This document shows, one piece after another, positions 1 to 60,613 of a stretch of DNA of 64,000 nucleotides (positions are counted from its first letter, which is position 1; every line of letters begins with the position of its first letter). The notes under the pieces were generated by a model that was not told the origin of the DNA, did no database searches, and saw only the letters and a list, made by a program, of their open reading frames with translations. The position numbers were made by a program, and so were the translations under genes. The DNA lies in assembly GCA_017471045.1 (NCBI GenBank), contig JAFUWZ010000051.1, positions 23,798-87,797 on the forward strand. Direction: 5' to 3'. Source of the DNA: Bacteroidales bacterium (GTDB lineage Bacteria > Bacteroidota > Bacteroidia > Bacteroidales > UBA932).

Positions 1-84
1 CTTCTCCAGGAGCAAGCGGATGTATTCACGGGCCAGATTATATGTCTTGCCGGAGCCGGCCGAAGCTTTCAGGATCCTGATCAT
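1..84 (-). CDS. addA: 5' end of UvrD/AddA-like helicase (partial, runs off window start)
   Basis: Translated by hand: MIRILKASAGSGKTYNLAREYIRLLLEK, with the N-terminal ASAGSGKT Walker A typical of AddA/UvrD. ATG at 84 overlaps the TGA of the upstream nuclease gene. Confidence 0.85.
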   Translation of the reverse strand, partial: MIRILKASAGSGKTYNLAREYIRLLLEK

Positions 85-2939
85 CTTCCACAAATCGTTT
101 TGAAATCACAATACGCGCAGGTCTTCACCTCGCCGGTCCGCCGGAAAGGAACCGACGGATCCACCAGCTCGGCGAGCAGGTCTTTGAGCCGTTCCCGGGT
201 CAGCCGGGCGAACTCGGCACTCTGGGGCTGGTCCTTCAAGGGATCGGTGAAAAGGCGCGACACCGAATAGATGGAATTGACGACCGGCCGTCCCCGCAGG
301 TCCTCATAACCCTGGGCCAGCAGCCCGTACAGGAACAACTGGAGGGCGATCTTCGGCCGGCCGGAATTGTTCGGGCCGAACAGCTTCTCCACGATAAGGG
401 CGGCATTATCGTCGGTGATCAGGAGGTCGTCGTCCTCGACCCGGCCGGTCTTGTAATCCACGATCCGCACTTCATCCCCGACATAACGGTCGATACGGTC
501 GGCGAACCCCTTCAGGCGGAAGCCCTCGAAGCGGCATTCCAACTCCCGCTCCAGGCCCAATATCCGGAACCCCGGCGAGCCCGAACGGACAAGCAGGTCC
601 CGGTCATGACGCAAAGTCTGGAACACATATTCCCGGATGACTTCCTCCACGACCAGGTTGCGGCCCGACACGTCAATGGTTTTGAGCTGTTCCATGATGA
701 GCGAGCGGACCAGGTCCTTGATCCCGGCACGCTCTTTCAGCATCCGCTCCAGATCCGCGACCGTCACCGGATTGAGCGGGGCATACAGGCGATGCATCGT
801 CTCGTGGTACACCGTACCCAGGCTGCCCGCGTCCAAAGCCTCCTCCACTTCGTCCTCGGTCTTCAAACCCTCGACGAACTGGTAGTAGAACTTGGCCGGA
901 CAGAACAAATAGTTTTGCAGCGCCGAGGCAGACAACGCATGGCTCCGGATATGCGCGATGTCGCGGGCCGTCTTCAGAATCCGGTCTCCTACAGGCGAGA
1001 GCTGCATTTTCGACGTTGAGACATAGCGTTTCAACGGGACCTGGTAGTAATACTCCAACTGCTTGATATAGCGGCTCTCCTCACCGGTCTTGAGTCCTTC
1101 GGTGCGGCTGTCGCAGATCAGCCAGACCTGCTCGGCGCGCTGGATCATCCGATAGAAATAATAAGCCCACACGCTGTCCTGGAACTCATAGGTCGGGAGG
1201 CCGAAACCCCGGCGGAGCTCCGGCGGCACGAACGAGGCACTGACGCTGCGGCGCGGGAAGGACCCCTCATTGGCCGAGAAAATGACAAGGTGGCGGAAAT
1301 CCAGGGCACGAGTCTCGAGCGGGCCCATGACCTGCAAGCCCTCCAGCGGCTCTCCGCGGAAAGGCACCGACTCAGAGGAAAGCAAGGTCTCCAGCAGATG
1401 CAGCCAGGTCGCGGGAAGGATGGCCAGGTCGATGTCTCCCAAAACCTGCAACGAAGTCAGGTAACGCTTGGCAAAATCCAGTTCGAGCAGCAGGTTTTCC
1501 ACTCCGCGGATCTTCCAGCCTACATAACTGACGATCTCGCCCAGGGCGGCGGCCATCCGCCGGTTCTGGCCGGCCGAACTCTCCTTTGGCTCCTGGATGA
1601 TGGGACGGAAAACCAAATCCAGCAACGGACCGCCCTGCAAGTCAGCGGCGGAGATATAGTAGCGGGAAGCTTTCTTGACCGCATCCACCCGATCCCGCTC
1701 TTCAGGCGTCAGGGCGGTCCGGAAAAGGCTGTTGGCAAACAAAGCGTGCACTTCCCGGTGGTAGAAGAACCATTGCCCGTCTTTCAGACGAAGGCGCTGC
1801 TGCATGGCCGTGACCGTACTCATCATCGCGTAGACGGCGCCGTTCGTGAGCGGACAACCCATCGTCACGTTGATGCTGTCATACGCGGACGGGATGGAAT
1901 TCAGCAGGGGCATCAGGAGATGCTCGTCGGGCAGGACGAAAGCCGTTTCCACAGGATCCCCGTCGCAGCCTGCCAGGATCTTCGAAGCCAGCTTGACCTG
2001 TCCCGCCGAGGAAGGGACGCTTACGACGTGGAAAACCGGCTGGCCCAGGCCCTCAGGGTCCGGCTGGAAGGCGGGAGGAAACTCCAGGACATTCTCACGA
2101 AGGAAAAACGACGACTTGTTGCGGGGATCCCGGATGGCTTCCGAGGCATAATCCCAGCAGAACTCGGCCATGCCGGCGTCCCGCATCCGCCGCAGGACCG
2201 TTTTTTCGCAGTCGTTCAGGGCATTGAGCCCGACGAAGACAAAGGACTCCCGCCCCGGGAAGACTCCGCCCAGGATATCTGCCACCGCGGCACCGTCTTT
2301 CAGCCGGGCGGCCAAGTCGCGGTAAACCATCCCTTCATAGGACATGCCGGCCGTCTTCAGCCGCTGCCGATACTGCCTGTACAAGGGAAGCAGGATATTC
2401 CAGATCTGGAGAAAGCGGGCCTTGACCGTATGGTCGTCCGTATCCAGATGGACGGTCAGCCGCCCGGCCTGGTCCCGGAAATGCGACACGAAGCGCGCCA
2501 CAGCCTCCCGCTGGGTCTCGGACAAGTGGCTGTAATCGTCCTGGATATCCTTGAAATCCGCCACGTTGGCAAACAAGTCCTGCGCATCCACCATATACTT
2601 GTCCACGTCGTCGAAATCGGCCAGGATGATTTCCCCCCAGAAAATGAACTCATCCAGCGGCTCCGCCTTGGGATACACCGTGCAGTACGTGTCATACAAA
2701 GCCAGCAGGAGCCGGATGCGGTCGGTCACGTCTCCGCCATATACCTGGTAAAAGAAATCGTTGATCGTCAGACAGGGCGGCGCCACAAGCGGCCGCGCGC
2801 TCCCGCGTTCCCGGATGGTCTCTCCCAGATACTTCCGGAAAAACACGGCGGAACGACGGTTGGGGAAGATGAAACAGCGCCGGTCGATCGGCCCCGCGTC
2901 ATAGTAATGCGAGGCCACCTGCTTCAAGAAAGGAACCAT
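81..2939 (-). CDS. addB: AddB-like protein: inactive helicase-like N-terminus plus C-terminal PD-(D/E)XK nuclease with Fe-S cysteines
   Basis: SASALQNYLFCPAKFYY, GFADRID...IVDYKTG nuclease motifs and terminal CAYCDFKTIC; coupled to addA. ATG at 2939 preferred over TTG at 2948. Confidence 0.8.
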   Translation of the reverse strand: MVPFLKQVASHYYDAGPIDRRCFIFPNRRSAVFFRKYLGETIRERGSARPLVAPPCLTINDFFYQVYGGDVTDRIRLLLALYDTYCTVYPKAEPLDEFIFWGEIILADFDDVDKYMVDAQDLFANVADFKDIQDDYSHLSETQREAVARFVSHFRDQAGRLTVHLDTDDHTVKARFLQIWNILLPLYRQYRQRLKTAGMSYEGMVYRDLAARLKDGAAVADILGGVFPGRESFVFVGLNALNDCEKTVLRRMRDAGMAEFCWDYASEAIRDPRNKSSFFLRENVLEFPPAFQPDPEGLGQPVFHVVSVPSSAGQVKLASKILAGCDGDPVETAFVLPDEHLLMPLLNSIPSAYDSINVTMGCPLTNGAVYAMMSTVTAMQQRLRLKDGQWFFYHREVHALFANSLFRTALTPEERDRVDAVKKASRYYISAADLQGGPLLDLVFRPIIQEPKESSAGQNRRMAAALGEIVSYVGWKIRGVENLLLELDFAKRYLTSLQVLGDIDLAILPATWLHLLETLLSSESVPFRGEPLEGLQVMGPLETRALDFRHLVIFSANEGSFPRRSVSASFVPPELRRGFGLPTYEFQDSVWAYYFYRMIQRAEQVWLICDSRTEGLKTGEESRYIKQLEYYYQVPLKRYVSTSKMQLSPVGDRILKTARDIAHIRSHALSASALQNYLFCPAKFYYQFVEGLKTEDEVEEALDAGSLGTVYHETMHRLYAPLNPVTVADLERMLKERAGIKDLVRSLIMEQLKTIDVSGRNLVVEEVIREYVFQTLRHDRDLLVRSGSPGFRILGLERELECRFEGFRLKGFADRIDRYVGDEVRIVDYKTGRVEDDDLLITDDNAALIVEKLFGPNNSGRPKIALQLFLYGLLAQGYEDLRGRPVVNSIYSVSRLFTDPLKDQPQSAEFARLTRERLKDLLAELVDPSVPFRRTGEVKTCAYCDFKTICGR

Positions 2940-2944
2940 ATCCG

Positions 2945-4576
2945 TCAAAAAGAAAGCTGGGCATCGGCATAGCGGGAAACCGCTTCCCGATGCGAAATAA
3001 ACAGGATTGTCTTCTCACCTTTGCATGCGGATGCGAGCCGGTCGAGCAGGATCTGCTCCGTCGCTGCATCCAGCGAAGAACTGGCCTCGTCCAGGATCAG
3101 GATACGGCCCGGCCGGAGCAAGGCACGGGCGATCGCTACACGCTGGGCCTGTCCTTCACTCAATCCGGCACCGACCTCGCTGCACAACGTGTCGAGACCG
3201 GCCGGAAGATCCTGCACGAAATCCGCTGCCGCGATATGCAGCGCTTCCCGCATCTGCTCGTCCGTGGCGGCAGCGTCCGCCAGCAGGAGATTCTCCCGGA
3301 TCGTACCGCTCATCAGGCTGTTGCCTTGCGGCACATAGGTGAAATTGCAGCGGGTCGCCACCGAAGACGGGACGCTCCGGCTGCTGTCATACAACTCGAT
3401 CCGCCCCTTCACCGGTGTAAGCAGAGCCATGACCAGGCGCACCAGCGTACTCTTGCCGGCCCCCGTATGACCGGTGATGACCGTAGTGGTGCCCGGCTTG
3501 AAATCGAAATCCAGACCGTCGATCACCGTTTTCCCGTCATCCGGATAGGCAAAGGAGAGCGAGTCCACCCGGACGCCAGGCGCCTCCGGGAAAGCATCGT
3601 CCGCCACCTCAGGCTCCAGCGGGAGCTCCTGCAGTTCCATCAGACGCTCGACCGAGGTCAGGGAATTGATGAATGCGGGGATATGCCGGCTCAGGTCGGC
3701 GATCGGCCGCTGGATCTGGCCGACCAGCTGGAGAAAAGCTGTCATCATGCCGAAAGTCACCGTGCCGCTCTTGATACCGAAAACGCCCCAGAGGAAAGCA
3801 GCGGCATAGCCGGACATGAAGCCCATGCTCATGAATGTACGTGCGACAGCATTGTAGTTCAAGCGTTTGACGGCATTGTTGCGGATATCATCCTGCAAAT
3901 GCTCCATCCGGTCTGTGACCCGGTCCACGCCGAAAAGCGTGAGAACGAGCACCCGGCGCTGCAGATTTTCCTGGATATGCCCCTGGACTTCGCTGTCCTT
4001 CTTCCGGATTTTCTCGGTCAGCTCCCGCAGCAGGCGAAAAAACATCTTGCTGCCCAGGACTGCGACCACCATCAGGAGCAGCAGCAGCCAGACCAGCTTC
4101 GGGGCAAGGTGCAGCAGGAAGATCGAAGCGGCAATCAGCTGGCACAGCGTCACGACCGCATCCGGCAAACGCGAACAGATCAGATCGACCACGACCCGCA
4201 GGTCCTCCTGCATACGGTTGATCGCATCGGCGCTGTGGAAAGTCTCCCGTCCGTTCCAGGAGCTGCGGATGATATGGGCGAACAGGTCCCGACGCATCTG
4301 CAGACGGGTTTTCACCTCCGTCAGTCCCTGCCAATAGTTGAATGCGACATTGGACGCCAGTTGAAGCGCCATCACACCGATCATCGTCCAGACATAAGGC
4401 CCGATGGGTACGGCATCGACACCGCTGGCGATATCGATCAGTTTCTTGCAGATCCATACGAACAACAGGGAGGCACCGATCCGGACCAGGCCGATCAGCA
4501 CAGTGACGATGATCCGTCCCGACAAGGGGCGGACCATCGCACCTAATCCCTTCATGCACGTACGGAAATCTTTCAT
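2945..4576 (-). CDS. ABC exporter, fused permease plus ATPase, no C39 peptidase domain
   Basis: N-terminal hydrophobic helices; Walker A GHTGAGKST, Q-loop VPQG, signature LSEGQAQR, Walker B ILILDE, ISHR. Start reassigned to MKDFRTC at 4576, 5 nt after the PqqD stop. Confidence 0.92.
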   Translation of the reverse strand: MKDFRTCMKGLGAMVRPLSGRIIVTVLIGLVRIGASLLFVWICKKLIDIASGVDAVPIGPYVWTMIGVMALQLASNVAFNYWQGLTEVKTRLQMRRDLFAHIIRSSWNGRETFHSADAINRMQEDLRVVVDLICSRLPDAVVTLCQLIAASIFLLHLAPKLVWLLLLLMVVAVLGSKMFFRLLRELTEKIRKKDSEVQGHIQENLQRRVLVLTLFGVDRVTDRMEHLQDDIRNNAVKRLNYNAVARTFMSMGFMSGYAAAFLWGVFGIKSGTVTFGMMTAFLQLVGQIQRPIADLSRHIPAFINSLTSVERLMELQELPLEPEVADDAFPEAPGVRVDSLSFAYPDDGKTVIDGLDFDFKPGTTTVITGHTGAGKSTLVRLVMALLTPVKGRIELYDSSRSVPSSVATRCNFTYVPQGNSLMSGTIRENLLLADAAATDEQMREALHIAAADFVQDLPAGLDTLCSEVGAGLSEGQAQRVAIARALLRPGRILILDEASSSLDAATEQILLDRLASACKGEKTILFISHREAVSRYADAQLSF

Positions 4577-4581
4577 AAGGG

Positions 4582-4851
4582 CTATTCGGCGACAACGCCC
4601 GCTTCCACCCACGCCTGGGCCAGCGAGGCCGCATCATGGGCAGCGACTTCTTCCGTCACCTCGTAGCGGTCCAGCAGCAGTTCCGTCAAGGTCTCAACCG
4701 TAAAATCTTTGCCCTCGACAGCCTCCCACAGGTAGGCGGCGCTGTCATTGAGCGACACCATCTTGTTGAAATTGACCTGGGCGAGCCCTTCGCCAACGAC
4801 GATGTGCTCCTTGCCCAATTTACGCAATCTGAAACCTTCAATAATCTTCAT
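4582..4851 (-). CDS. PqqD family protein / RiPP recognition element (RRE), 89 aa
   Basis: MKIIEGFRLRKLGKEHIVV...SLNDSAAYLWEAVEGKDFTVETLTELLLDRYEVTEEVAAHDAASLAQAW fits the PqqD pattern (LNxxxxxxW, YxV, Dxxxxxxxx). ATG at 4851. Confidence 0.88.
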   Translation of the reverse strand: MKIIEGFRLRKLGKEHIVVGEGLAQVNFNKMVSLNDSAAYLWEAVEGKDFTVETLTELLLDRYEVTEEVAAHDAASLAQAWVEAGVVAE

Positions 4852-4855
4852 ATCC

Positions 4856-5281
4856 TTAAGCAATTTTTCTGTAAACCCATAAAACATACTTGCGAACCGG
4901 CAGAAGTTTTCTCCAGAAAGTGCCTTTCGTCACCTTCTTGACGGAGCCGTTGGGCCGGATGATCTCCTGGACAGTACCCAGGATGTCGGACAGCGAGCAG
5001 GACTCCGTCCCGACCAGATTGCCATCTCCCATCAGCGTGACCCTGCCCCCTTCGATGATGATGATGCGATGGAGCACATACCGTTTGGGAGCGATCCGCG
5101 CCAGGACGATATCGCCGACCTCCACCGCGTCGAACTTCTTCAAGTTGACACTGTCTTTCTCGCCCCGGATGAAAGGGAGCATGCTGTTTCCCTTGGTCAT
5201 CAGGACGACTTCGATCCCCCGTGAGAGCAGATCATGGGCCTCTTCCAAAAGGATTTCGTTGGGTACTACCATCTTGTTCAT
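4856..5281 (-). CDS. S24/S26 family (signal-peptidase-like) serine peptidase
   Basis: KGNSMLPF catalytic Ser box, GDIVL, YVLHRII (His at the general-base position), GDGN. Confidence 0.85.
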   Translation of the reverse strand: MNKMVVPNEILLEEAHDLLSRGIEVVLMTKGNSMLPFIRGEKDSVNLKKFDAVEVGDIVLARIAPKRYVLHRIIIIEGGRVTLMGDGNLVGTESCSLSDILGTVQEIIRPNGSVKKVTKGTFWRKLLPVRKYVLWVYRKIA

Positions 5282-6156
5282 CTTACTGCTTCATGACATA
5301 CTTCAGCCGCTTCGTGATCCGGACGGCAGTCCAGGACGAAACACGGCACGTCCAGAACCACCTTTTCCAACGTGGCGTGCAGGCCGTCCGCGATCTTCCG
5401 GTCGGATTTCAGCCCCGAACAGGATGAATACACGGAAGCATAAGCCTCTACGACCGACAGGCGGGTCGCATGGTTCTCCGGGGCCTGGCGGATCCGCACG
5501 ATTGCGCCCACGGGAGCGTCCAAGTTGCGGTAACAGGGTGTTTTACCGCTCCAGGGAGTCCCGTAAACGCGCGCCGAACCGTCAGGGTCCAGGCGGATGA
5601 CCGGATTGTCGTCGTTGAGCAGTTCCGTGCCCGGGAAGGTCTCCAGCCACTGGCGGCTGTGCGTGCTCTTCCCCGTACCGCTCTTGCCCAGGAACATATA
5701 GCCTTTCCCGTCCTTAAGCACCACCGAGGAATGCATCTCGAGCGTGTCCATCCCGGAGGTGCGGAATGCGTAGAGGATCATCAGCGCATTGTTGAGGGCA
5801 AACAAGGCATTCCGGCGCTCGGGTACGATGCAGAAAACAGCCCGGGAGAAATCCGCCAAGGACTCCATCACGCAGCAGACCGGAGCCTTGGCCAACGGCG
5901 CCATCTCGAAACGCCATCCCTCCCCGACCCGGTACAATTCGATCCGGGACTGTCCTTCTTCGTGCGGAGCTTCGGTATAGACCGGCTCTTTTTCGCGCGC
6001 AGGCAGATCCTGCACAAGCGTCAGGGAAAACACCCCGTCCTCCTCTGAAATCGGGACCTCGAACGGGTCATACTGCCCCATCATGTTCCACAGAGGGCAA
6101 CCCTCGGGCATCTCCACACTGAACCGGTGTCCGGCTACGACGAACGACTTTTTCAT
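5278..6156 (-). CDS. HPr-kinase-related P-loop kinase
   Basis: MHSSVVLKDGKGYMFLGKSGTGKSTH and LLNDD motifs match the HprK/PEPCK-like kinase fold. ATG at 6156; the TTG at 6165 lies inside the promoter motif. Confidence 0.78.
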   Translation of the reverse strand: MKKSFVVAGHRFSVEMPEGCPLWNMMGQYDPFEVPISEEDGVFSLTLVQDLPAREKEPVYTEAPHEEGQSRIELYRVGEGWRFEMAPLAKAPVCCVMESLADFSRAVFCIVPERRNALFALNNALMILYAFRTSGMDTLEMHSSVVLKDGKGYMFLGKSGTGKSTHSRQWLETFPGTELLNDDNPVIRLDPDGSARVYGTPWSGKTPCYRNLDAPVGAIVRIRQAPENHATRLSVVEAYASVYSSCSGLKSDRKIADGLHATLEKVVLDVPCFVLDCRPDHEAAEVCHEAVR

Positions 6157-6162
6157 AGACAA

Positions 6163-6170
6163 CAAATATA
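6163..6170 (-). promoter_or_regulatory. Bacteroidota -7 promoter element TATATTTG for the kinase-peptidase-PqqD-ABC-addBA operon
   Basis: Matches TAnnTTTG and lies 6 nt upstream of ATG 6156. Confidence 0.7.
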
Positions 6171-6194
6171 ACTATTATTAGTGAATTCGCGAAC

Positions 6195-6342
6195 GAAAAA
6201 AAAGAAAGATGGGATGCTCTGCACCGGCACGTTGAACACCAGGCCGTCGCCCAGCCAGGCAGCCGACACGGTTCATCGTTTTCTTGTCACTGGCGCCGAA
6301 AGCCGGAGAGACCGGCAAAAAATACAAACCCCATCCCTTTCT
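6195..6342 (-). ncRNA. Candidate structured ncRNA, 6S-like
   Basis: GC-rich segment between two outward-facing promoters. Ends pair (GGGATG/CATCCC, then TTTGTAT/GTGCAGA with G-U pairs only on the minus strand), contains TGAACC...GTTCAA and is followed by a U-rich tract. Not verified with a covariance model. Confidence 0.3.
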
Positions 6343-6366
6343 GCTTCAGAATTGAAAGAAAGTTTG

Positions 6367-6374
6367 TAGATTTG
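6367..6374 (+). promoter_or_regulatory. -7 promoter element TAGATTTG for alr
   Basis: TAnnTTTG match 6 nt upstream of ATG 6381. Confidence 0.65.
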
Positions 6375-6380
6375 TACGAT

Positions 6381-7517
6381 ATGCCGAATCATGACAACGA
6401 TTTCACGCGTCTGGAGCTGAGTCTCCCGAACTGCCTGGACAATTTCAGGTATTTCCGCTCCCGCATCGAGCCCGCTACCCGGCTCCTCGTCCTGGTCAAG
6501 GCCAACGCCTACGGCCATGGCGCGGTGGAGATGTCCGCGATGCTCCAGCAGGCCGGCGCCGACTATCTCGCCGTCGCCCTCCCCGTGGAAGGCATCGAAC
6601 TGCGCCGGGAGGGCATCACCCTTCCCATCCTGGTGCTCACCGCCGGCACGGATTTCTTCGACGAGATGATCGAGAAGCGCCTGGAGCCCGGCATCCCCAA
6701 CCTGTACACCCTGGCCGCATTCCGGGACCGGCTCCGGCAAAGCGGCATCCGGGACTACCCCGTCCACCTCAAGCTGGACACCGGCATGCACCGGCTCGGT
6801 TTCGTTCCCGAAGAGATCCCCGCCCTCACCGCCTTCCTGCAAGACTGTCCTGAGGTCCGGGTCCAATCCGTTTATTCCCATCTCGCCGCCGCCGACGATC
6901 CGGCGGAAGACGCCTACACGATGCGGCAGGTCCGCCTGTTCACCGAAGGGGCCTCGGCGATCGACCGGGCCGTGGGATTCCACCCGATCTGGCACATCCT
7001 CAATTCGGCCGGGATCGAACGCTTCCCGCAGTACCAGTTCGACATGGTGCGGCTCGGGATCGGCATCTACGGGATCGACCCGGTCGAATATCCGGAAGGC
7101 CAGGTGGTGAGACGGGGTTTGAAGCCGATTGCCTCGCTAAAAGTCAAGATATTACAAATAAAGGAGTTACAGTCAGACGGAAGCACTATCGGATACGGAC
7201 GTCACGGGATCATCGCCCCGGAAGGCACCGTGATCGCGACCATTCCCGCCGGTTATGCCGACGGACTGGACCGCCACTTGGGGCAAGGGAACGCTACGTT
7301 CCTTCTCAACGGACATCGTGTCCCCACGATCGGCAACATCTGCATGGACATGTGCATGCTGGATATCACCGGCGTCGAGGCCAAGGTCGGAGATACCGTC
7401 ACGATTTTCGGCGAAGATCCCACGGCAACGGAAATGGCGTCCATCCTGGACACCATTCCCTATGAGATATTGACTTCGGTACCTCGCCGTATCAAGCGCG
7501 TCATCATTCGCAAATAA
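6381..7517 (+). CDS. alr: Alanine racemase
   Basis: VKANAYGHG (PLP lysine), KLDTGMHRLG, SHLA, GYADG, ICMD. Confidence 0.96.
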   Translation: MPNHDNDFTRLELSLPNCLDNFRYFRSRIEPATRLLVLVKANAYGHGAVEMSAMLQQAGADYLAVALPVEGIELRREGITLPILVLTAGTDFFDEMIEKRLEPGIPNLYTLAAFRDRLRQSGIRDYPVHLKLDTGMHRLGFVPEEIPALTAFLQDCPEVRVQSVYSHLAAADDPAEDAYTMRQVRLFTEGASAIDRAVGFHPIWHILNSAGIERFPQYQFDMVRLGIGIYGIDPVEYPEGQVVRRGLKPIASLKVKILQIKELQSDGSTIGYGRHGIIAPEGTVIATIPAGYADGLDRHLGQGNATFLLNGHRVPTIGNICMDMCMLDITGVEAKVGDTVTIFGEDPTATEMASILDTIPYEILTSVPRRIKRVIIRK

Positions 7518-8079
7518 GGTCCAGTCCGTACTGCACTTCGGCAGCGACGGCCTCTCCCTTGACCTTCTTGACGATTTCGAGCGCGAAAGCTTCCGTGTGT
7601 CCGGGCCCGCGTCCGGTGATGATGCGGCCGCAGGTGACGGCCGGCTGCGGCGAGAAGTGCGCACCTTTCGAGACCATCGGATCCTCGAAGCCGTCATAGC
7701 AAGTGAAATCAATCCCCCACAGGTCCTCCAGCTGGGAAAGCACCAGACCCGGCGCCGCACAGATGGCTGCCAGGGTACCGCCCTCGCCGTAGTGGTCTTT
7801 CATCCGCTCGATCAGCCGCTTGCAGCTGCCCAGATGCCGGGCGCCCGGCATCCCGCCGGGGAAAATCAGCACGTCGCGCTCCGATGCGCCGTCACTTCCC
7901 TCCAGGTCATCCAGATGGCAGTCGATGCCGACCATCAGGCCGTGGGACGAGACCACGAAAGGGTCGTCGGAGATGCCAACCAGTTGTACGTCGATACCCG
8001 CCCGTTTCAGGATGTCGCGGGTACCCAGGGCCTCGATATCTTCGAAGCCGTCAGCGAGGAAAAGAAAAACGCCTTTCAT
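7504..8079 (-). CDS. DJ-1/PfpI/ThiJ (YajL-like) family protein
   Basis: LADGFEDIE, IFPGGMPG, AAICAAP, IITGRGPG. Confidence 0.92.
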   Translation of the reverse strand: MKGVFLFLADGFEDIEALGTRDILKRAGIDVQLVGISDDPFVVSSHGLMVGIDCHLDDLEGSDGASERDVLIFPGGMPGARHLGSCKRLIERMKDHYGEGGTLAAICAAPGLVLSQLEDLWGIDFTCYDGFEDPMVSKGAHFSPQPAVTCGRIITGRGPGHTEAFALEIVKKVKGEAVAAEVQYGLDLICE

Positions 8080-8092
8080 GCGGAAAAGATAA

Positions 8093-8758
8093 TTAACGGT
8101 TGCGGGCGATGCCGATATAATAAAGCAGGGTCGCGATCGAGCCGATCGCCGCGATGATATAGGTATAGGCCGCCCATTTCAGGGCATCCACGGCCATCGG
8201 CTTGGTCTCGTAGTTGACGATCCCCGTCTGGTCCAGCCACTGGACCGCCCGGCTGCTGGCGTTGATCTCCACCGGGAGCGTCACGATGCTGAAAAGGGTC
8301 GAGGCCGCAAACAGGGTGATGCCCAGCCAGAGGAAAGAGGGCGTCAGGTTGATCATCAGTACCCCGAGCAGCAGCACCCAGGAGACATATTTGTTGGAGA
8401 AAGACACCACCTTGACCAGTGAGCTGCGCAGCTGGAGCGGTGCGTAGCCCGTCGCATGCTGGATGGCGTGCCCGCATTCATGGGCCGCCACCGCAGCCGC
8501 GGCGACATTGCGCTGGGAATACACGCTCTCGCTGAGGTTGAGCGTCTTGTTGGTCGGATCATAGTGGTCGGTCAGCTCTCCGGAGATGCTCATGACCTTG
8601 ACATCGGTGATCCCGTTGTCGCGAAGCATCTTGGCGGCGACTTCGGCGCCGGAGAGCGGAATCCCCACCTCACTGTACTTGTGGAACCTGCGCTGCAGCA
8701 CCTGCTGGACGATGGCGCTGGCCACCATCACGGCAATCAAAACAAACCAGATATTCAT
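8093..8758 (-). CDS. Membrane neutral zinc metallopeptidase (YugP-like)
   Basis: LTDHYDP, AAVAAHECGHAIQ, TLPVEINASSRA, AAYTY. Confidence 0.92.
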   Translation of the reverse strand: MNIWFVLIAVMVASAIVQQVLQRRFHKYSEVGIPLSGAEVAAKMLRDNGITDVKVMSISGELTDHYDPTNKTLNLSESVYSQRNVAAAAVAAHECGHAIQHATGYAPLQLRSSLVKVVSFSNKYVSWVLLLGVLMINLTPSFLWLGITLFAASTLFSIVTLPVEINASSRAVQWLDQTGIVNYETKPMAVDALKWAAYTYIIAAIGSIATLLYYIGIARNR

Positions 8759-8770
8759 CTTTCTTCCGAT

Positions 8771-9178
8771 TTAATCTTCCTCTGAAAAATCTCCCGGGTC
8801 AAACCCGTCCCACAGAGCCTCGATGTCCCGGCGCTCCTTCTTGGTCGGGCGTCCGGCCCCGCGCTCGCGCCGCACGAAGAAAGTCTCCACGGGGGCGTGC
8901 AGCTTGTCCAGCTCGGACTGGGGGGTCGTGTTTTCCGCGTATGCCGGCACCAGTTTGGCGCCCTGGCGGTTTTCCGTCAACTGCAAGACCTTGTAAGTGA
9001 GCTGTGCGGAACCCTTCCGCACCGCGATCCGGTCGCCGACCTTGACAGCCTTGGAAGGCTTGGCCGGTGCACCGTTGAGCTGCACCTTGTTGCCGTTGCA
9101 GGCGTCCGTGGCCTCACTCCGCGTCTTGTAGCAGCGGATAGCCCACACGTATTTGTCCAATCTTACCGAATCTGACAT
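8771..9178 (-). CDS. hslR: S4-domain ribosome-associated heat shock protein Hsp15
   Basis: RLDKYVWAIRCYKTRSEA and RERGAGRPTKKERR. Confidence 0.9.
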   Translation of the reverse strand: MSDSVRLDKYVWAIRCYKTRSEATDACNGNKVQLNGAPAKPSKAVKVGDRIAVRKGSAQLTYKVLQLTENRQGAKLVPAYAENTTPQSELDKLHAPVETFFVRRERGAGRPTKKERRDIEALWDGFDPGDFSEED

Positions 9179-9184
9179 GGCACA

Positions 9185-10198
9185 TCAATTCAATAAACGG
9201 TCCCCGCTCCGGCCGGGAAAATCTTCAGGCACTTCGTGCCGCTCCACGACGGCTTCCAGGAGCAGCGTCCCTTCAGCACGGGGGACCAGGTAGAAATCCG
9301 GCACTTCGGCCGGCACGAGCAGGGCCTCTCCCGCTCCGATCCCATAGTTGTCCATCGACGCCTCCCCGCCAGGCATCCCGGCAGGCACCTGCACCGAAGC
9401 CTCACCGGCCAGGCAGAGGTAAGCGACAAAACTACCGAACTGCTCACAGAAGATGTGCAGGGGCTCGGTCAGGCGGATCCGCGTGGCGATAAACTCAGGA
9501 TTGTCCGTCAGCCGCACCGTCCCCTGGCTCCCCTCCGGACGGGGCGCCTGAGGCTGCCAGGCCCGGTAATCGATGAAGTCGAAAGCCGCCTCCAGGGTCA
9601 GCTCCGCATCGAAGGGATCAACCTCTCCCGCTTTGCGGCCCCAGTCGTAGAGGCGGAAATCCAGGGGAGAGGACTCGGCCACCTCCGCGATCGAGACGCC
9701 CTCCCCCGCCGCATGGACGGTACCGGGCGCGATGAAGAAGGAGTCACCGGCCTTGGGCTCCACCACGTGGAGCAGATCCTCGACGGAACCGTCCTGGCAG
9801 GCCCGGTAGAATTCCTCGGAACTGACATCCCGGCGGAAACCCAGGAACAGTTTTGACCCGGGCCGGGCACTCACCACATACCAGAGCTTGGCCTTGCCCA
9901 GGAAATCGAAGCGCTGCGCAGCGATCTCATCGTCAGGATGGACCAGCAGCGGAGTGCGGCGCGTGCCTTTCAAAGACTTCATAAGCACGGGGAACTGCCG
10001 CCCGTAGGCGGCGAACACGCCCTCGCCGACCACCCGGTCCATATACATTTCCATGATCTCGGAAAGGGTGTTGGACGCAAGCCAGCCGTTCCTGACCATC
10101 GAATCCGGGAATCCGAGATCGGCCAGATGCCAGATCTCGTCAGACATATCCTCGACAGGAACCAGTTTGAAGGGATACAGTTTCTTTTCTTCTTCCAT
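9185..10198 (-). CDS. Class I mannose-6-phosphate isomerase-like cupin
   Basis: QFPVLMK, LLVHPDD, KAKLWYV, GTVHAAG, EVAESS, FRLYDWGR. Several canonical residues are altered. Confidence 0.8.
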   Translation of the reverse strand: MEEEKKLYPFKLVPVEDMSDEIWHLADLGFPDSMVRNGWLASNTLSEIMEMYMDRVVGEGVFAAYGRQFPVLMKSLKGTRRTPLLVHPDDEIAAQRFDFLGKAKLWYVVSARPGSKLFLGFRRDVSSEEFYRACQDGSVEDLLHVVEPKAGDSFFIAPGTVHAAGEGVSIAEVAESSPLDFRLYDWGRKAGEVDPFDAELTLEAAFDFIDYRAWQPQAPRPEGSQGTVRLTDNPEFIATRIRLTEPLHIFCEQFGSFVAYLCLAGEASVQVPAGMPGGEASMDNYGIGAGEALLVPAEVPDFYLVPRAEGTLLLEAVVERHEVPEDFPGRSGDRLLN

Positions 10199-10207
10199 AT
10201 CAACGTC

Positions 10208-10444
10208 TCAGAAAAGCGTGGGATGGTTCTCGTCCAGATCCGACAGCACCCGCTCGATGATCGCCTGGCGCAGCATGGAGGAGCGGGACCGGACCTTGAA
10301 GCGGCGGCAATACTCCTCGATGGCATTCATCTCTTTCTCATTGAAATAGAGGACCTGCCGATGGGTGCGTACCAAGGCGGCTTTCTGCTTTTCCAGGAAG
10401 TCGGGATCCACGTTGGGGAGGATTTGCTTTTTCCGCGCGCTCAT
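10208..10444 (-). CDS. Small conserved hypothetical protein (78 aa), possibly ribbon-helix-helix
   Basis: MSARKK...RTHRQVLYFNEKEMNAIEEYCRRFKVRSRSSMLRQAIIERVL...PTLF. ATG 10444 follows a TACATTTG promoter motif. Confidence 0.75.
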   Translation of the reverse strand: MSARKKQILPNVDPDFLEKQKAALVRTHRQVLYFNEKEMNAIEEYCRRFKVRSRSSMLRQAIIERVLSDLDENHPTLF

Positions 10445-10449
10445 AAAAA

Positions 10450-10457
10450 CAAATGTA
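10450..10457 (-). promoter_or_regulatory. -7 promoter element TACATTTG
   Basis: TAnnTTTG match 5 nt upstream of ATG 10444. Confidence 0.65.
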
Positions 10458-10461
10458 GCAA

Positions 10462-11631
10462 TTATTTCCCGAAAGCGCAATAGCGATCCGTGATGCGGCC
10501 TCGCGCATCCACGGCGAGGATGTGCGGCAGCAGGCTCAGGTCGAAAGCATCGAACAGCTGCCGGGCGAGTTCCGGCCGCTCGGCCAGCGTCTCATCCACG
10601 TTGACCAGGAAAGCCTTTCCACCGCGTTTCAGGCCGGCTTTGAGGGCAGGTATCTCCTCCTGGCAGCGGCTGCAGCTCTCGGAATAGAATACCAGATAAG
10701 CCGGGCGGCCCCGCAAACGGCTCAAATCACGCGAACGGACGGCGGAGGCCCCGCAAGCCTTGTACAAGACGCCCTCGACCTTGATGGCGGGCAAACGGGC
10801 CCCGACCGGATTGCGGTTTAGCAGCGCTTCATCCATTGAGCCCATCTCGACCAGTTGCATCAGCGCATCGACCGTCAGACGCCGGCCTATGATGACGCCG
10901 GTCCGGTCCAGTAGGAAAAGGCGCGGTGTCTGGAGGATGCCGTACAGGCGCTGGAAGTCGCTCGACACTTCGGGATCCCAGGCATGACGGACCCGGATGT
11001 GCCCCGCACTGAACTGCAAGCGCTCCGCGACATACGCGCGCCAGGCGTCCCGATCCGAGCCGACATAGACGGCATAGAGGTCCAGGTCGGCCTCCTGCTC
11101 CTCCAGCCAGCTGCGCAGCAGGACCGCCTCCAACTTGCACTTGGCACAATCGGTATCATAAAAGTACAGGACGCTCCGGCGCTTCCCGTCCGGAGCCGGT
11201 ACGGTGACCGGCTCATCCTCCAGGCCCTGCATCTCGAGTACCGGCGCCGGCAGGCCGAGGAGCGAAGAGCGGTTGAATTCGGCAAAAAACCTGGCCTGGA
11301 TGCGCTCTGCCTCCGTCGGGAAGACCACCGTCCCGTCGCTGAACCAACGGTCATACAGATGGATGGCGACCGCCTCCTCCCCCATCAGCTTCGAATCCGC
11401 ATAATGGGCGTACAACTTTGCAGCGACCGACTGGCGCAGCAGCGAATCATGGCAGGTCGAGACCAAAAAATCGCATTCGGCGACTTTCGTATCAAGGTCC
11501 TCCGGTTCCAAGGCGGCAAGATAGTCGTCCACCATCGCCAGGGTCCGGGCCACGGCGGACGAATCGACCTGCGCGAACGCCGGGAACACGGCGAGCAGGA
11601 GCGTCAGCCCTATGAGCGGGAGCCTACGCAT
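10462..11631 (-). CDS. Exported protein with two thioredoxin-like domains (DUF5106-like N-terminus)
   Basis: Signal peptide MRRLPLIGLTLLLAVFPAFA; CxxC motifs YDTDCAKC and YSESCSRC. ATG 11631 overlaps the coaD stop. Confidence 0.8.
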   Translation of the reverse strand: MRRLPLIGLTLLLAVFPAFAQVDSSAVARTLAMVDDYLAALEPEDLDTKVAECDFLVSTCHDSLLRQSVAAKLYAHYADSKLMGEEAVAIHLYDRWFSDGTVVFPTEAERIQARFFAEFNRSSLLGLPAPVLEMQGLEDEPVTVPAPDGKRRSVLYFYDTDCAKCKLEAVLLRSWLEEQEADLDLYAVYVGSDRDAWRAYVAERLQFSAGHIRVRHAWDPEVSSDFQRLYGILQTPRLFLLDRTGVIIGRRLTVDALMQLVEMGSMDEALLNRNPVGARLPAIKVEGVLYKACGASAVRSRDLSRLRGRPAYLVFYSESCSRCQEEIPALKAGLKRGGKAFLVNVDETLAERPELARQLFDAFDLSLLPHILAVDARGRITDRYCAFGK

Positions 11632-12097
11632 GAGAGTCCGGCAAGGTGACGCCTTCCGGCAGGAAGAGACTCGTGTCCCCGTCATGCCGCAGGATGTCGC
11701 GGACAGCGGAAGACGAGATGTGCGCGAACTCCTGTGCGGTCGGGATGATCAGGGTCTCGATCTCGGGCGCGAGCCGGCGGTTGGCATCCGCGATCGAGCG
11801 TTCGGTCTCGAAATCCAGCATGTTGCGCACGCCGCGCACGATGTGGACGATCCCCAGCTGGCGGCACACGTCGACGGTCAGGCCGTCGTACTTGATGCAG
11901 GAGACGCCCTCCATCCCGGCCGTGGCCTGACGGATGATGTCCAGGCGCTGGTCCATGTCGAAGAAGCCGCGCTTGTCCTGGTTGATGCCCGCCGCCACGA
12001 CGACTTCGTCGAACATGGTCAGGGCACGTCTTAAAATATTCAGATGCCCGGCGGTGAAAGGATCGAAGGATCCGGGGAAAAGAGCGATACGTTTCAT
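11624..12097 (-). CDS. coaD: Pantetheine-phosphate adenylyltransferase
   Basis: ALFPGSFDPFTAGH, IVRGVRNMLDFETE, ISSSAVR. Confidence 0.97.
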   Translation of the reverse strand: MKRIALFPGSFDPFTAGHLNILRRALTMFDEVVVAAGINQDKRGFFDMDQRLDIIRQATAGMEGVSCIKYDGLTVDVCRQLGIVHIVRGVRNMLDFETERSIADANRRLAPEIETLIIPTAQEFAHISSSAVRDILRHDGDTSLFLPEGVTLPDSHA

Positions 12098-44022: not shown

Positions 44023-44202
44023 ATGCAGAAAACTACGGTCTCAAAACGGTCTTATTCCCGTCCCCTTTGTGAGAGTCTGGCTTTCACAACCGAAACTGCC
44101 CTTCTTTCGACCAGCGCCGGTGTAGGCGACATGCCCGTCCACCCGGCTTCCATTGGAGACAGCCAGAATGATTTATTTTCCAGCAGTGAGTTTATTTTTT
44201 AA
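44023..44202 (+). CDS. 59-aa peptide with YxxP leader-like motif (candidate RRE-dependent precursor)
   Basis: Translated by hand: MQKTTVSKRSYSRPLCESLAFTTETALLSTSAGVGDMPVHPASIGDSQNDLFSSSEFIF*. A-rich initiation context (AAATTTAAAACT-ATG); 11 nt before the next gene. Confidence 0.8.
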   Translation: MQKTTVSKRSYSRPLCESLAFTTETALLSTSAGVGDMPVHPASIGDSQNDLFSSSEFIF

Positions 44203-44213
44203 CAAAGGTTGCT

Positions 44214-47200
44214 ATGAAAAAAACTTCTTCACTTTCCGCCCTTGCGGCCGCGATCCTGTTCTGCGCGACTGGATGTATCAACGAACCTTTGACCCTGGAG
44301 CAGCCTGCCAGCCTCCAAGAAACTGCTGAAGAAGGGGGAGACTGGATCCTGATCAACGCCAAATTCCCGGACCAAGGCCCCGAGACCCGTCTTTCATACA
44401 GTTACAACGAAGAGGGAACCGTCCTCCATTCCACCTGGTCCTCCGGTGACGTACTGTACCGGGACGGTGCCAGCAGCAGCAAGTTCACCTATGTCGAGCC
44501 GACGGGCGAGAACACGGCTACTTTCGCGACGACCGCCGCCCTGGCCGCCAACACCAAGTATTATTTCACCGTCAACTACGCCAATTCTTCAAACGGCTTC
44601 AAGGCCAACCGCAACAGTTATTACCAATATGCCATCCAGACCGGCAACATCAACGATATCACCTGGTTCGACTACCTGTTTGCAACGGCCCAGACCAACG
44701 CCGACAAACAGCTCCCCGATGTGATCGAGTTCAAGCGCATGAACTCATTCGTCGAGGTCAATGGCATCAACTTCGGAGAAGGCGTCAACCTGGAAATCTG
44801 GAAAGTCCAGCTGGTCGGGCCCTGCTTCGGTACGCAGTGCCAGATCGGATTGACCAAGACCCGCAACGACTTCGGAGAAGCGAATGACGTCTATATCAAC
44901 AACGGACTCTCCGCCCAGCCGGGGTACTATTCGGAAGAGCCGTTCAACCATCCCAACTTCAAGGTCGAAAACGGCGTCCTGAAAGACACCGTCCTCATCT
45001 CTTTCTTCCCGACCCTGACCGCCCAGTCCGGCCAGCCCTGCAAACTCGCCTTCTACGACACGGAAAACAACATCTACACCCTCGAATGGGAGTCCTCGAG
45101 CGCCTATACGAGCGGTAATGTCTACCGCGTCTCCGGCCGGGCCGAGAAACCCATCGTCACCAATATCGTGTTTGAAGATCCCGTCGTGAAGTCTCTCTGC
45201 ACCAATTCGTATTATGGAGACTGGGACCTCAACAAGGACGGAGAGCTCTCTGATTTGGAAGCATCCCTGGTCTCTACCATCGAGTACAAATTCGGCGGCT
45301 ACAACGGCTCCGAAGGATCAAACATCACCAAGTTCAATGAACTCGAATACTTCACCGGCCTCAAGGAGATCCCTGCCCAGGCCTTCCTGAATTGCCGCAG
45401 CCTGGAAGAGATCACGATCCCCGAAAGTGTAGACCGGATCCGGGCAGACGCATTCAACGGATGCTCCAGCTTGAAATCCATCGTCGTTCCCGAAAATGTG
45501 AAAGAAATCTGGGGCGGAGCCTTCAAGTCCTGCACATCCCTGACCAGCGTCACCCTTCCGGACAATGCTGATATCGCCCCCGTCAACGCCAGCGGAACCC
45601 AGGCCGGCCAGACTTTCCAAGGTTGCACGGCCCTGGAGAGCATCACCCTGCCCAGTAACCTGACCGCCATCGGCGCCCAGACGTTCCAGGAGTCCGGTCT
45701 CTTCGCGATCCACCTGCCCAGCGGGTTGAAAACCATAGGAGCCAATGCCTTCTACAAGTGCTCCCACCTGAACATCATCACGTTGCCCGCTTCGCTGGAG
45801 ACCGTCAGCGCCGGTGCATTCGGAGAGTGTTCCAACATCATTTATGCCGAGATCGAACCCGGATCTACCTTCTCGATCTCAGACGACTATTCGATGCTCA
45901 TCCAGAACGGCAATACCGCCGTCGCCAGCTTCGGCAACAAGACGGTCCTCCGCTTCCCCGAACAGATCACGGCGATCGCCGCTTCCTTCGCCAACGGTTC
46001 TTCCAAACTGGAAGAAGTCCATATCCCCGGCATCAAGTCCATCGGAACTCAGGCTTTCGCCAACTGCCTCAATCTGAAGAAAGCCGTATATGCCGATGAC
46101 GCCGTGACCGGAGCCAGCACCTTCCTCAATGACGTAAGTCTGACGGAAGTCATCCTTCCCAAGAACGCAACCGAACTGCAAGCCAGCCTCTTCCAGGGCT
46201 GCTCCGCCCTCGAAAGCATCACCCTGCCCGCCGGAGTGACCAAGTTCAACACCAATGTCTTCCGCGACTGCAAGTCGCTTAAGACTGTCATCCTGCCCGA
46301 AGGGATCACGGAAGTAGCCGGAAATCTGTTCTATGGCTGTTCCTCGCTCGAGCACATTGACATCCCTTCCACCGTCGTGACCCTCAAGGGCAACTGCTTC
46401 CAGAAATGCACCGGCCTCAAGGAGATTGTGCTCCCCGCAGGCCTGACCCGCATCGAGGGAAGCGTTTTTGACGGCTGCAGCGGTATCCAGGAAATTAAGA
46501 TCCCCGACGGTGTGACCTTTATCGGGCAATACGCATTCCGGGGCATGACCGGCTTGAGCGAAATCCACATCCCGGATGGCGTCACCAACCTCCAGGCCGG
46601 ATTGATTGCCAACTGCACCGGGATCACCGAATTCACGTTCCCCGCCAAGGTTACGACCCTCGGAGCCGGCGTCTTCTCCGGGACGGGCATCACTTCCCTG
46701 ACCTTGCCCGCCGGGATCAAGACCCTGCCCAACAATGCTTTCCAAAACACGAAAATCCAGACCGTCGCACTGCCGGCGAATCTGACGCAGATCCCGGGCA
46801 ACTGCTTCGACGGCTGCACCAACCTCAAGGAGCTGTCCATCCCCGCAACCGTTACGACGATCGGCATGAATGCCTTCCAGAACTGCACGGCCCTGACTTC
46901 CCTGACCCTCCCGGCCGGCGTCAAGACACTCAACAACAACTCCTTCAAGGGATCCGGCCTGACTTCCATCACGCTGCCGGACGCCATAGCGCAGATTCCG
47001 AACAACTGCTTCCAGGGCTGCGCCGCACTCAAGATCGTCGTCTTCCCGGCCAACCTGACGACCATCGCCATGTACGCCTTCCAGAACTGCACGGCCCTTG
47101 AGTCCGTATCGCTTCCGGAGAAACTTACGACGATCAACATGTATGCCTTTGACGGCTGCTCCGGCTTGAAGGATGTCTCCATCTCCACCGGAATCACGAT

Positions 47201-47423
47201 GATCAACATGTACGCTTTCTCCAAGTGCCCGTCCCTGGATTGGGTCCAAATCGAGCGCACGACGCCCCCGACCGTCATGAGCAACAGTTTCCAACTGAAT
47301 GCGGACCAGGATCCCTATCCGATCTATGTCCCGGACAGCGCCGTCGAAGCCTACAAGAGCACCGGAAACTGGGCAAGCGCCTACGCTTCCCGCATCTATT
47401 CAATCAGCAGCAAAGGCGAATAG
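44214..47423 (+). CDS. Surface lipoprotein: fimbrillin-like N-terminus plus about 26 BspA-type leucine-rich repeats (LRR_5)
   Basis: Lipobox ATGC; ETRLSY, WSSGD, GNVY; N-cap FEDPVVK..WDLNKDGELS..NELEYFTGL; repeated AF.GC..L..I.LP; C-cap TTPP..IYVPDSAVEAYK. Confidence 0.9.
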   Translation: MKKTSSLSALAAAILFCATGCINEPLTLEQPASLQETAEEGGDWILINAKFPDQGPETRLSYSYNEEGTVLHSTWSSGDVLYRDGASSSKFTYVEPTGENTATFATTAALAANTKYYFTVNYANSSNGFKANRNSYYQYAIQTGNINDITWFDYLFATAQTNADKQLPDVIEFKRMNSFVEVNGINFGEGVNLEIWKVQLVGPCFGTQCQIGLTKTRNDFGEANDVYINNGLSAQPGYYSEEPFNHPNFKVENGVLKDTVLISFFPTLTAQSGQPCKLAFYDTENNIYTLEWESSSAYTSGNVYRVSGRAEKPIVTNIVFEDPVVKSLCTNSYYGDWDLNKDGELSDLEASLVSTIEYKFGGYNGSEGSNITKFNELEYFTGLKEIPAQAFLNCRSLEEITIPESVDRIRADAFNGCSSLKSIVVPENVKEIWGGAFKSCTSLTSVTLPDNADIAPVNASGTQAGQTFQGCTALESITLPSNLTAIGAQTFQESGLFAIHLPSGLKTIGANAFYKCSHLNIITLPASLETVSAGAFGECSNIIYAEIEPGSTFSISDDYSMLIQNGNTAVASFGNKTVLRFPEQITAIAASFANGSSKLEEVHIPGIKSIGTQAFANCLNLKKAVYADDAVTGASTFLNDVSLTEVILPKNATELQASLFQGCSALESITLPAGVTKFNTNVFRDCKSLKTVILPEGITEVAGNLFYGCSSLEHIDIPSTVVTLKGNCFQKCTGLKEIVLPAGLTRIEGSVFDGCSGIQEIKIPDGVTFIGQYAFRGMTGLSEIHIPDGVTNLQAGLIANCTGITEFTFPAKVTTLGAGVFSGTGITSLTLPAGIKTLPNNAFQNTKIQTVALPANLTQIPGNCFDGCTNLKELSIPATVTTIGMNAFQNCTALTSLTLPAGVKTLNNNSFKGSGLTSITLPDAIAQIPNNCFQGCAALKIVVFPANLTTIAMYAFQNCTALESVSLPEKLTTINMYAFDGCSGLKDVSISTGITMINMYAFSKCPSLDWVQIERTTPPTVMSNSFQLNADQDPYPIYVPDSAVEAYKSTGNWASAYASRIYSISSKGE

Positions 47424-58740: not shown

Positions 58741-58746
58741 ATCGCA

Positions 58747-59481: not shown

Positions 59482-59484
59482 ACG

Positions 59485-60555: not shown

Positions 60556-60572
60556 AAGATCTTGATCGCTTA

Positions 60573-60580
60573 CAAAGTTA
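60573..60580 (-). promoter_or_regulatory. -7 element TAACTTTG for the epimerase-nucleotidyltransferase-OMP-esterase operon
   Basis: TAnnTTTG match 17 nt upstream of ATG 60555. Confidence 0.6.
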
Positions 60581-60613
60581 TGAAAAAAAACAGTAACTTA
60601 GCGATTCAATATC

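Follow-up and report, generated by a model that had tools for sequence, protein, structure and literature searches.

The stretch of DNA analysed here (the window, 64,000 nucleotides (nt) in length) covers positions 23,798 to 87,797 of contig JAFUWZ010000051.1 in assembly GCA_017471045.1, a genome of a Bacteroidales bacterium (UBA932) which amounts to 2.62 Mb in 73 contigs and is 96% complete. At positions 2945-6156 of the window, four coupled genes were found on the minus strand in the order K-S-B-D, these letters standing for a kinase-like gene (K), a peptidase (S), a recognition element (RRE) of pathways for peptides which are made by the ribosome and modified after translation (RiPPs) (B) and an exporter (D); N and a are used below for an NTP_transf_5 gene and a peptide gene, respectively. 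The kinase-like gene (5278-6156) starts with an ATG at 6156 and encodes 292 amino acids. The peptidase gene (4856-5281, 141 amino acids) overlaps its stop codon by 4 nt, the stand-alone PqqD-type RRE gene (4582-4851, 89 amino acids) starts 4 nt past the peptidase stop, and the gene for an MsbA-like ATP-binding cassette (ABC) exporter extends from 2945 to approximately 4576, its start being uncertain between 4555 and 4612. Six nt upstream of the kinase ATG, at 6163-6170 on the same strand, the sequence TATATTTG was read, a putative promoter which matches the Bacteroides-type -7 motif, TAnnTTTG. A preliminary description of this locus, made from the letters of the window, had proposed a four-gene operon here, and both its coordinates and its gene calls were right. 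The four genes are not chance neighbours, since the same order recurs with differing flanks in many genomes.

The preliminary description knew of no characterised product for this architecture. Its characterised counterpart is the linear polyphosphorylated peptide (LPP) family of Bacillota (Popov et al., Nat Commun, May 2026; PMC13381572). The LPP cluster of Paenibacillus alginolyticus is arranged lppA-K-B-S-D-N, and with the Paenibacillus lpp cluster in B. subtilis the precursor carried one to four phosphates on core Ser3, which were added by LppK (PMC13381572). LppB holds the Pro and Tyr of the YxxP leader by means of N33 and D70; LppS, aided by LppB, cuts off the leader, the mutants S29A, H68A and D93A being inactive; and LppD is an MsbA-like pump (PMC13381572). 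The leader consensus was given as YxxPxVLxHQxIxFETxxS (PMC13381572). LPPs were described as restricted to Bacillota, and Bacteroidota are absent from the main text; the supplementary table lists Paludibacter propionicigenes WP_013444635.1 and a Porphyromonadaceae protein, peptidase-ABC fusions of approximately 745 amino acids beside an RRE, which sit in a minor network cluster undiscussed in the main text (PMC13381572). These two fusions are a fused S-D variant of the system in Bacteroidota.

The peptidase matched the Pfam model Peptidase_S24 with an E-value of 8.7e-5, slightly under the cut-off, and also stayed below the cut-off of the archaeal signal peptidase I model; a profile search of PDB sequences returned weak LexA matches only. 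When its profile (alignment A6) was compared with LppS by hhalign, a probability of 97.2% and an E-value of 3.4e-11 were obtained, with S33, H71, D86 and E93 aligned to S29, H68, D87 and D93 of LppS. Among 75 homologues, S33, H71-R72, the G-D86-G-N box and E93 show no or almost no variation. The AlphaFold model, with a predicted local distance difference test (pLDDT) score of 88.9, has the clan-SF fold and was matched by Foldseek to LexA, UmuD, SpsB and SipA. Because of the fold and the LppS profile match, the S24-type identity of the protein is confirmed, in keeping with its initial reading as an S24/S26 peptidase. The model consists further of an N-terminal helix (residues 8-20) and a basic amphipathic C-terminal helix, and no N-terminal membrane anchor was seen in the sequence or the model. 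With SipW of Bacillus subtilis and the signal peptidases of the endoplasmic reticulum and archaeal type (S26B) the enzyme shares the Ser/His pair plus acidic residues and the GDxN box; unlike them it has no N-terminal membrane anchor, and it would be a cytoplasmic enzyme with a substrate presented by the RRE.

The RRE protein was recognised by the Pfam model PqqD with an E-value of 1.5e-14 and is the sole PqqD protein of the genome. Residues N35 and D73 are invariant in its homologues and align with N33 and D70 of LppB, all of which agrees with its first assignment as a PqqD-type RRE. A single-sequence search of the PDB gave nothing useful, and among the matches of its profile to the PDB was PbaB1 (E 0.9); LppB was not among them. 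The exporter consists of two domains only, ABC_membrane, matched from residue 35 onwards with an E-value of 2.7e-31, and ABC_tran, with an E-value of 1.9e-25. Because its transmembrane domain begins at residue 35, it has no C39 domain, as had been proposed. In NCBIfam it comes closest to the models of type I secretion, MsbA and CydC exporters, without reaching the cut-off of any of them.

The kinase-like protein gave weak matches to the NCBIfam and Pfam models ScmC, HprK_rel_A and PEPCK (phosphoenolpyruvate carboxykinase), and its homologues carry the Pfam domain PF27840 'ScmC'; more than 7,600 protein clusters match it. Three motifs, FLGKSGTGKST (Walker A), NDDNP and PWSGKTPCY, are invariant in 14 homologues. 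A fold search with its AlphaFold model (pLDDT 90.7) by Foldseek led to PEPCK (E 1e-6) and to the catalytic domain of HPr kinase/phosphorylase (HprK/P; TM-score (TMt) 0.5-0.55), with PEPCK rather than HprK ranking first. The HPr-kinase-like gene of the preliminary description thus finds its support in the HprK/PEPCK fold of the model, the direct family matches being weak. An extra N-terminal domain of about 130 residues is present, and no match to Hpr_kinase_C (PF07475) was obtained. We regard the protein as a ScmC-family P-loop protein of HprK/PEPCK-like fold, a putative peptide Ser/Thr kinase and analogue of LppK.

The flanks of the cassette are without a cyclase, a B2 peptidase, a radical S-adenosylmethionine (SAM) gene or a precursor, as had been noted, and a genome-wide search with the peptide hidden Markov model (HMM) described below gave no match within positions 1-12000 of the window. 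The substrates had been supposed to be encoded elsewhere, a peptide at 44023-44202 being one candidate. All small open reading frames (ORFs) of the genome were scanned for the YxxP leader, followed by HMMs and controls, and eleven plausible precursors of 41-59 amino acids carrying a YxxP leader were identified, including that at 44023-44202. This peptide, on the plus strand and 59 amino acids in length, reads MQKTTVSKRS-YSRP-LCESLAFTTETALLSTS, followed by a variable core. The other ten lie on other contigs (numbered here with a C) at C31:9666-9815, C64:187431-187595, C66:38820-38975, C49:170249-170374, C46:18975-19121, C69:15370-15504, C58:11808-11939, C23:42456-42593 (overlapping the end of a lipoprotein gene), C10:64019-64153 and C10:58102-58236. 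The family pattern is a basic N-terminus and a leader YxxP-x6-(F/L)-x2-(E/D)-x2-L-(C/L)-x-(T/S)-S, after which comes an acidic core, short and variable, which is rich in Gly, Asp and Thr and usually ends near Trp (for example DWDEL, NWGTL, DYWE or NWGN). A Ser or Thr is conserved at the boundary of leader and core; in the peptide at 44023-44202 a Ser stands 18 residues after the Tyr, as in LppA, and the family-invariant Ser stands at +20.

None of the peptides is matched by a Pfam or NCBIfam model, and their genes sit in unannotated intergenic gaps. With the family HMM, the peptide at 44023-44202 scored an E-value of 1.4e-6, and with a leave-one-out HMM 0.0026, as against 0.12 for the best ORF outside the family. 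Leave-one-out models recovered four of eight peptides, with E-values of 1e-4 to 3e-3. In a reversed-genome control the best E-value was 1.1, compared with 1e-8 to 1e-11 for family members. Two further candidates were rejected. The peptide at C50:39365-39508, ranked 1767 in the leave-one-out search, precedes a conserved cytoplasmic gene without a lipoprotein signal, which by eye is presumably sufB, and a match on C28 from the iterated HMM appears spurious.

For ten of the eleven peptide genes, a large lipoprotein gene begins 10-25 nt further downstream. Given that about 8% of ORFs are lipoprotein-like, the binomial probability of this placement is 8e-11, a rough figure, the lipoprotein test being a regular expression. 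In the window, the peptide gene at 44023-44202 is followed after 11 nt by a gene on the plus strand (44214-47423) for a lipoprotein of 1069 amino acids with the signal ...FCATGC and BspA-type leucine-rich repeats (LRR_5, E 4e-166), and the two are probably co-transcribed. A domain scan covered the eight lipoproteins encoded outside C10; two had a Mfa_like_1 match and another is a close paralogue of these two, six contained Big_2, BspA-LRR or DUF285 domains, and two had no Pfam match. The paired lipoproteins have in common the N-terminal motif TRTA...W..GD.I.V, as read by eye. On C10 two convergent duplicate units of peptide and lipoprotein gene are present, at 58102-61053 on the plus strand and 61157-64153 on the minus strand, in which the peptide cores are identical (TVGLEDYNKPDGGWNWGN), the N-termini of the lipoproteins are almost the same and only the leaders differ, as if the peptide-lipoprotein pair were duplicated as one module.

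The best TM-score to the model of the peptidase (0.55, root mean square deviation 1.7 Å) was that of SipA of Streptococcus pyogenes (4n31), a signal-peptidase homologue required for pilus polymerisation. The resemblance is intriguing beside candidate substrates which adjoin lipoproteins, some of them fimbrillin-like, and may be a coincidence.

The linkage of cassette and peptides was followed in relatives. A search with two peptide patterns gave at least 594 species representatives, and 80 species-level loci were fetched from these, all from gut or rumen Bacteroidales assemblies. The gene order was K-S-B-D in 39, K-S-B-N-a in 10, K-S-B-N-D in three and N-K-S-B-D in three, the remainder being minor variants; the exporter adjoins PqqD in 39 of the 80. 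In the K-S-B-N-a loci the peptide reads MKKMNKxYEAPxAExIxM... and is followed by a lipoprotein gene. Elsewhere the peptide follows the exporter in a K-S-B-D-peptide-lipoprotein arrangement (locus L075), stands 120 nt upstream of the kinase gene in divergent orientation (L040), or opens one contiguous block peptide-lipoprotein-K-S-B-N-D (G460). The peptide of L072 lies 8.6 kb downstream of its cassette, some 8 kb beyond the PqqD gene, and was left out of the count of linked peptides. In two of the K-S-B-N-peptide-lipoprotein loci, L059 (14468-17304) and L060 (9114-11936), genes for a FadL/TodX-like outer-membrane protein and a tetratricopeptide repeat protein follow the lipoprotein gene; both may be parts of this system located at the outer membrane.

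In 23 of the 80 relatives an LppN-type (NTP_transf_5) gene was found no further than 7 kb from the kinase gene, either in the cassette or next to it. A control search showed B. thetaiotaomicron to have both PqqD and NTP_transf_5. In the source genome the one NTP_transf_5 gene, at C10:19407-20438 on the minus strand, is unlinked to the cassette. The pathway had been called minimal, which holds only in part: the genome does encode an NTP_transf_5 enzyme, and many relatives have this gene within the cassette itself. The C10 gene is followed 10 nt downstream, within C10:17927-20438 (minus strand), by a gene for a protein of 489 amino acids with no Pfam match in the 421 residues scanned. For LppN the LPP authors postulate a partner enzyme, and this protein may be its counterpart.

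Co-occurrence was examined in 80 other genomes of the same family. Matches to the peptide HMM at an E-value of 0.01 or less were obtained in 6 of 31 genomes with the cassette and in none of 49 without it (Fisher p = 0.0025). Among five matches which were inspected, four proved to be YxxP peptides with such a lipoprotein gene immediately downstream, whereas for the fifth (G503, L100) the contig ends before a downstream gene. The cassette itself is patchily distributed and accessory, being present in 13 of 301 genomes sampled across the phylum; within the order 21 of 151 genus representatives have it, and within the family 32 of 81 genomes.

Our observations thus comprise the gene set and its conservation, the folds and key residues, the LppS homology, and a peptide family with a physical and phyletic link to the cassette. 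The cassette is, with good confidence, an LPP-like, leader-dependent module for peptide processing and export. Taken with its full mechanism, by analogy with the LPP enzymes, it would be a Bacteroidales variant of LPP-type machinery which acts in trans on dispersed precursors, a reading to which we assign a probability of roughly 0.55. The likeness to LPP systems consists of a kinase-type enzyme of HprK fold, a stand-alone PqqD RRE, a cytoplasmic SipW-type Ser/His peptidase, an MsbA-like pump, no cyclase, and candidate precursors that carry YxxP and, 18-20 residues beyond its Tyr, a conserved Ser. The differences are several. The host is a diderm of the Bacteroidota; the kinase-type enzyme, which bears an additional N-terminal domain, is of the ScmC family (PF27840); no precursor adjoins the cassette, and the eleven precursor genes are unlinked to the enzymes, ten forming pairs with large genes for surface lipoproteins, several of which are fimbrillin-like; no capsule locus surrounds the cassette; and the NTP_transf_5 nucleotidyltransferase gene is unlinked, whereas LppN is encoded inside the LPP cluster. 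The ScmC-family kinase-type enzyme, the multiple precursors encoded in trans and the lipoprotein pairing of ten of the eleven are features of this variant's own.

By homology with the LPP enzymes, the pathway would proceed as follows. Ten of the eleven peptides would be transcribed together with the surface lipoprotein gene that follows. The PqqD protein would bind the YxxP leader via Asn35 and Asp73, and the ScmC-family enzyme would use ATP to phosphorylate, possibly repeatedly, the conserved Ser/Thr at the leader-core boundary. The Ser33/His71 peptidase would then remove the RRE-presented leader in the cytoplasm, the unlinked NTP_transf_5 enzyme may further extend or decorate the phosphate, and the ABC exporter would carry the linear product over the inner membrane to the periplasm. 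The chemistry of each step, the positions at which the peptide is phosphorylated and cut, and what becomes of the product are all inferred by homology. The steps of the preliminary description (binding of the leader, phosphorylation of the core, clipping of the leader and export of a linear peptide) match the LPP pathway demonstrated in Paenibacillus, and would apply here by homology.

A number of results weigh against this interpretation. Membership of the RRE in the LppB clade was not detectable, the comparison with LppB by hhalign being weak (33% probability), and the nearest solved relative of its profile is the lasso peptide RRE TfuB1 (6JX3, E 2.7e-5). The kinase-like protein is of the ScmC family and not Hpr_kinase_C, and the evidence for kinase activity is its fold and P-loop motifs. 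Beyond YxxP, the leader departs from the LPP consensus. The peptide family was initially chosen by regular expression and by eye, and four of the eight peptides were missed by leave-one-out, being too divergent for the 27-column model. In 39 of the 80 relatives, as in the source genome, no peptide adjoins the cassette, and the ten K-S-B-N-peptide loci are probably one clade and so represent few independent events. The co-occurrence sample within the family is small and uncorrected for phylogeny, and the HMM is more sensitive in close relatives. A search for co-occurrence at the level of the order was uninformative; it was underpowered because the leaders diverge too fast for the 26-column HMM.

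Three of these results, namely the missing adjacent peptides, the half of the candidates that leave-one-out did not recover and the uninformative search at order level, would also fit a cassette which is a genuine leader-dependent processing system acting on other substrates, the YxxP ORFs being regulatory or leader ORFs of adhesin operons, or untranslated. We consider this improbable, though it is the alternative that survives best. YxxP is the motif bound by this class of RRE (PMC13381572), the peptides stand in or next to the cassette in at least four arrangements, peptide matches within the family occur only in cassette-positive genomes, and a conserved leader with a hypervariable core is the pattern of RiPP precursors.

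Somewhat less probable again is that the ScmC-family protein is not a peptide kinase and performs another phosphotransfer, or serves as a scaffold or ATPase as in the radical-SAM-linked SynChlorMet (SCM) or GeoRSP cassettes, the exported product then being no phosphopeptide. SCM/GeoRSP cassettes (ScmC TIGR04249, HprK-related kinases A and B) likewise place a ScmC-family protein beside a PqqD-family protein, and to our knowledge have no known product. The best NCBIfam match of the protein is indeed to ScmC, a protein of radical SAM cassettes whose function is unknown, and the missing Hpr_kinase_C match, the first rank of PEPCK in the fold search and the additional N-terminal domain of about 130 residues point the same way. 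The match to TIGR04249 was, however, 26 bits against a cut-off of 125, and the cassette described here differs from the SCM type in having no radical SAM/SPASM partner. Three radical SAM/SPASM proteins are encoded elsewhere in the genome, at C39:123393-124520 (minus strand), C49:9215-10318 (plus strand) and C54:601-1611 (plus strand), which would favour a role of this kind; two are TIGR04133 ('rSAM_w_lipo') and one is a generic SPASM protein with a weak best match to GeoRSP. None of the three is ScmE or ScmF (52-88 bits, cut-off 400), and none is near the cassette or the peptides. A radical SAM role on Cys-containing leaders may be considered. In favour of a kinase, the proven kinase LppK has the same partners (an S26-type peptidase, an RRE, NTP_transf_5 and an MsbA-like pump), and the Ser/Thr at the leader-core boundary of the peptides is conserved.

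The cassette could also be part of an ordinary lasso-peptide cluster split over the genome. Lasso systems of the paeninodin type (PadeK, ThcoK, Pba) share with it a YxxP or WxxP leader, a discrete PqqD RRE, an HprK-like kinase acting on Ser, an ABC exporter and an optional NTP_transf_5 gene; HprK-like kinases decorate paeninodin-type lasso peptides (PMC13381572), and the proximity of the RRE profile to TfuB1 is in line with such an origin. The leader peptidase here is, however, a clan-SF serine enzyme, and the absence of a lasso cyclase and a B2 peptidase, first noted for the flanks, extends to the 96%-complete genome: Transglut_core3 (B2, PF13471) gave no match, and the best match to Asn_synthase (PF00733) reached 20.7 bits, below the cut-off, over 70 residues only and with a stop codon inside. 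A split lasso cluster is therefore refuted, save for the case that both the cyclase and the B2 genes fall in the 4% of the genome which is missing. Least probable of all is a metabolic HPr kinase/phosphorylase beside unrelated genes, for although HprK/P chains are among the fold matches, Hpr_kinase_C does not match, the four-gene order is kept with varying flanks, and no phosphotransferase system (PTS) HPr gene was found in the genome, so that the protein is not an HPr kinase.

The cassette is flanked upstream by a divergent alanine racemase gene and downstream by an AddB-like nuclease gene. The latter, an ORF of 955 amino acids for an AddB-like PD-(D/E)XK nuclease at positions 81-2948 of the window (minus strand), overlaps the exporter stop by 4 nt if its TTG start is real. 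The adjacency is not conserved, the homologue in locus L002 being 7 kb away on the opposite strand, and this ORF is probably unrelated to the cassette. In the literature on SynChlorMet, on PqqD in Bacteroides and on Bacteroidota RREs with a signal peptidase, no paper on this cassette was found. A 2023 paper on the mining of Bacteroidales for RiPPs does not cover it.

LPP-related machinery is common in gut and rumen Bacteroidales, beyond the Bacillota, and is present in approximately 40% of the sampled genomes of the family. Its organisation, with one enzyme set and many dispersed precursors, is unlike that of the published LPP systems, and the pairing with adhesin-like lipoproteins, which suggests a role at the cell surface, is a testable lead to function. 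More speculatively, and with less chance of being right than wrong, each fimbrillin-like lipoprotein or adhesin of the gut and rumen Bacteroidales may have its own peptide, all of these being matured by one shared, trans-acting LPP-type machine to exported, acidic, Trp-ended phosphopeptides, to which the nucleotidyltransferase might add further, with each peptide functionally tied to its adhesin. Such a tie, if true, could for instance serve assembly, masking or anchoring, or could signal the adhesin variant being expressed, and would represent a new biological role for this class of RiPPs and a new component of the surface biology of the Bacteroidales.

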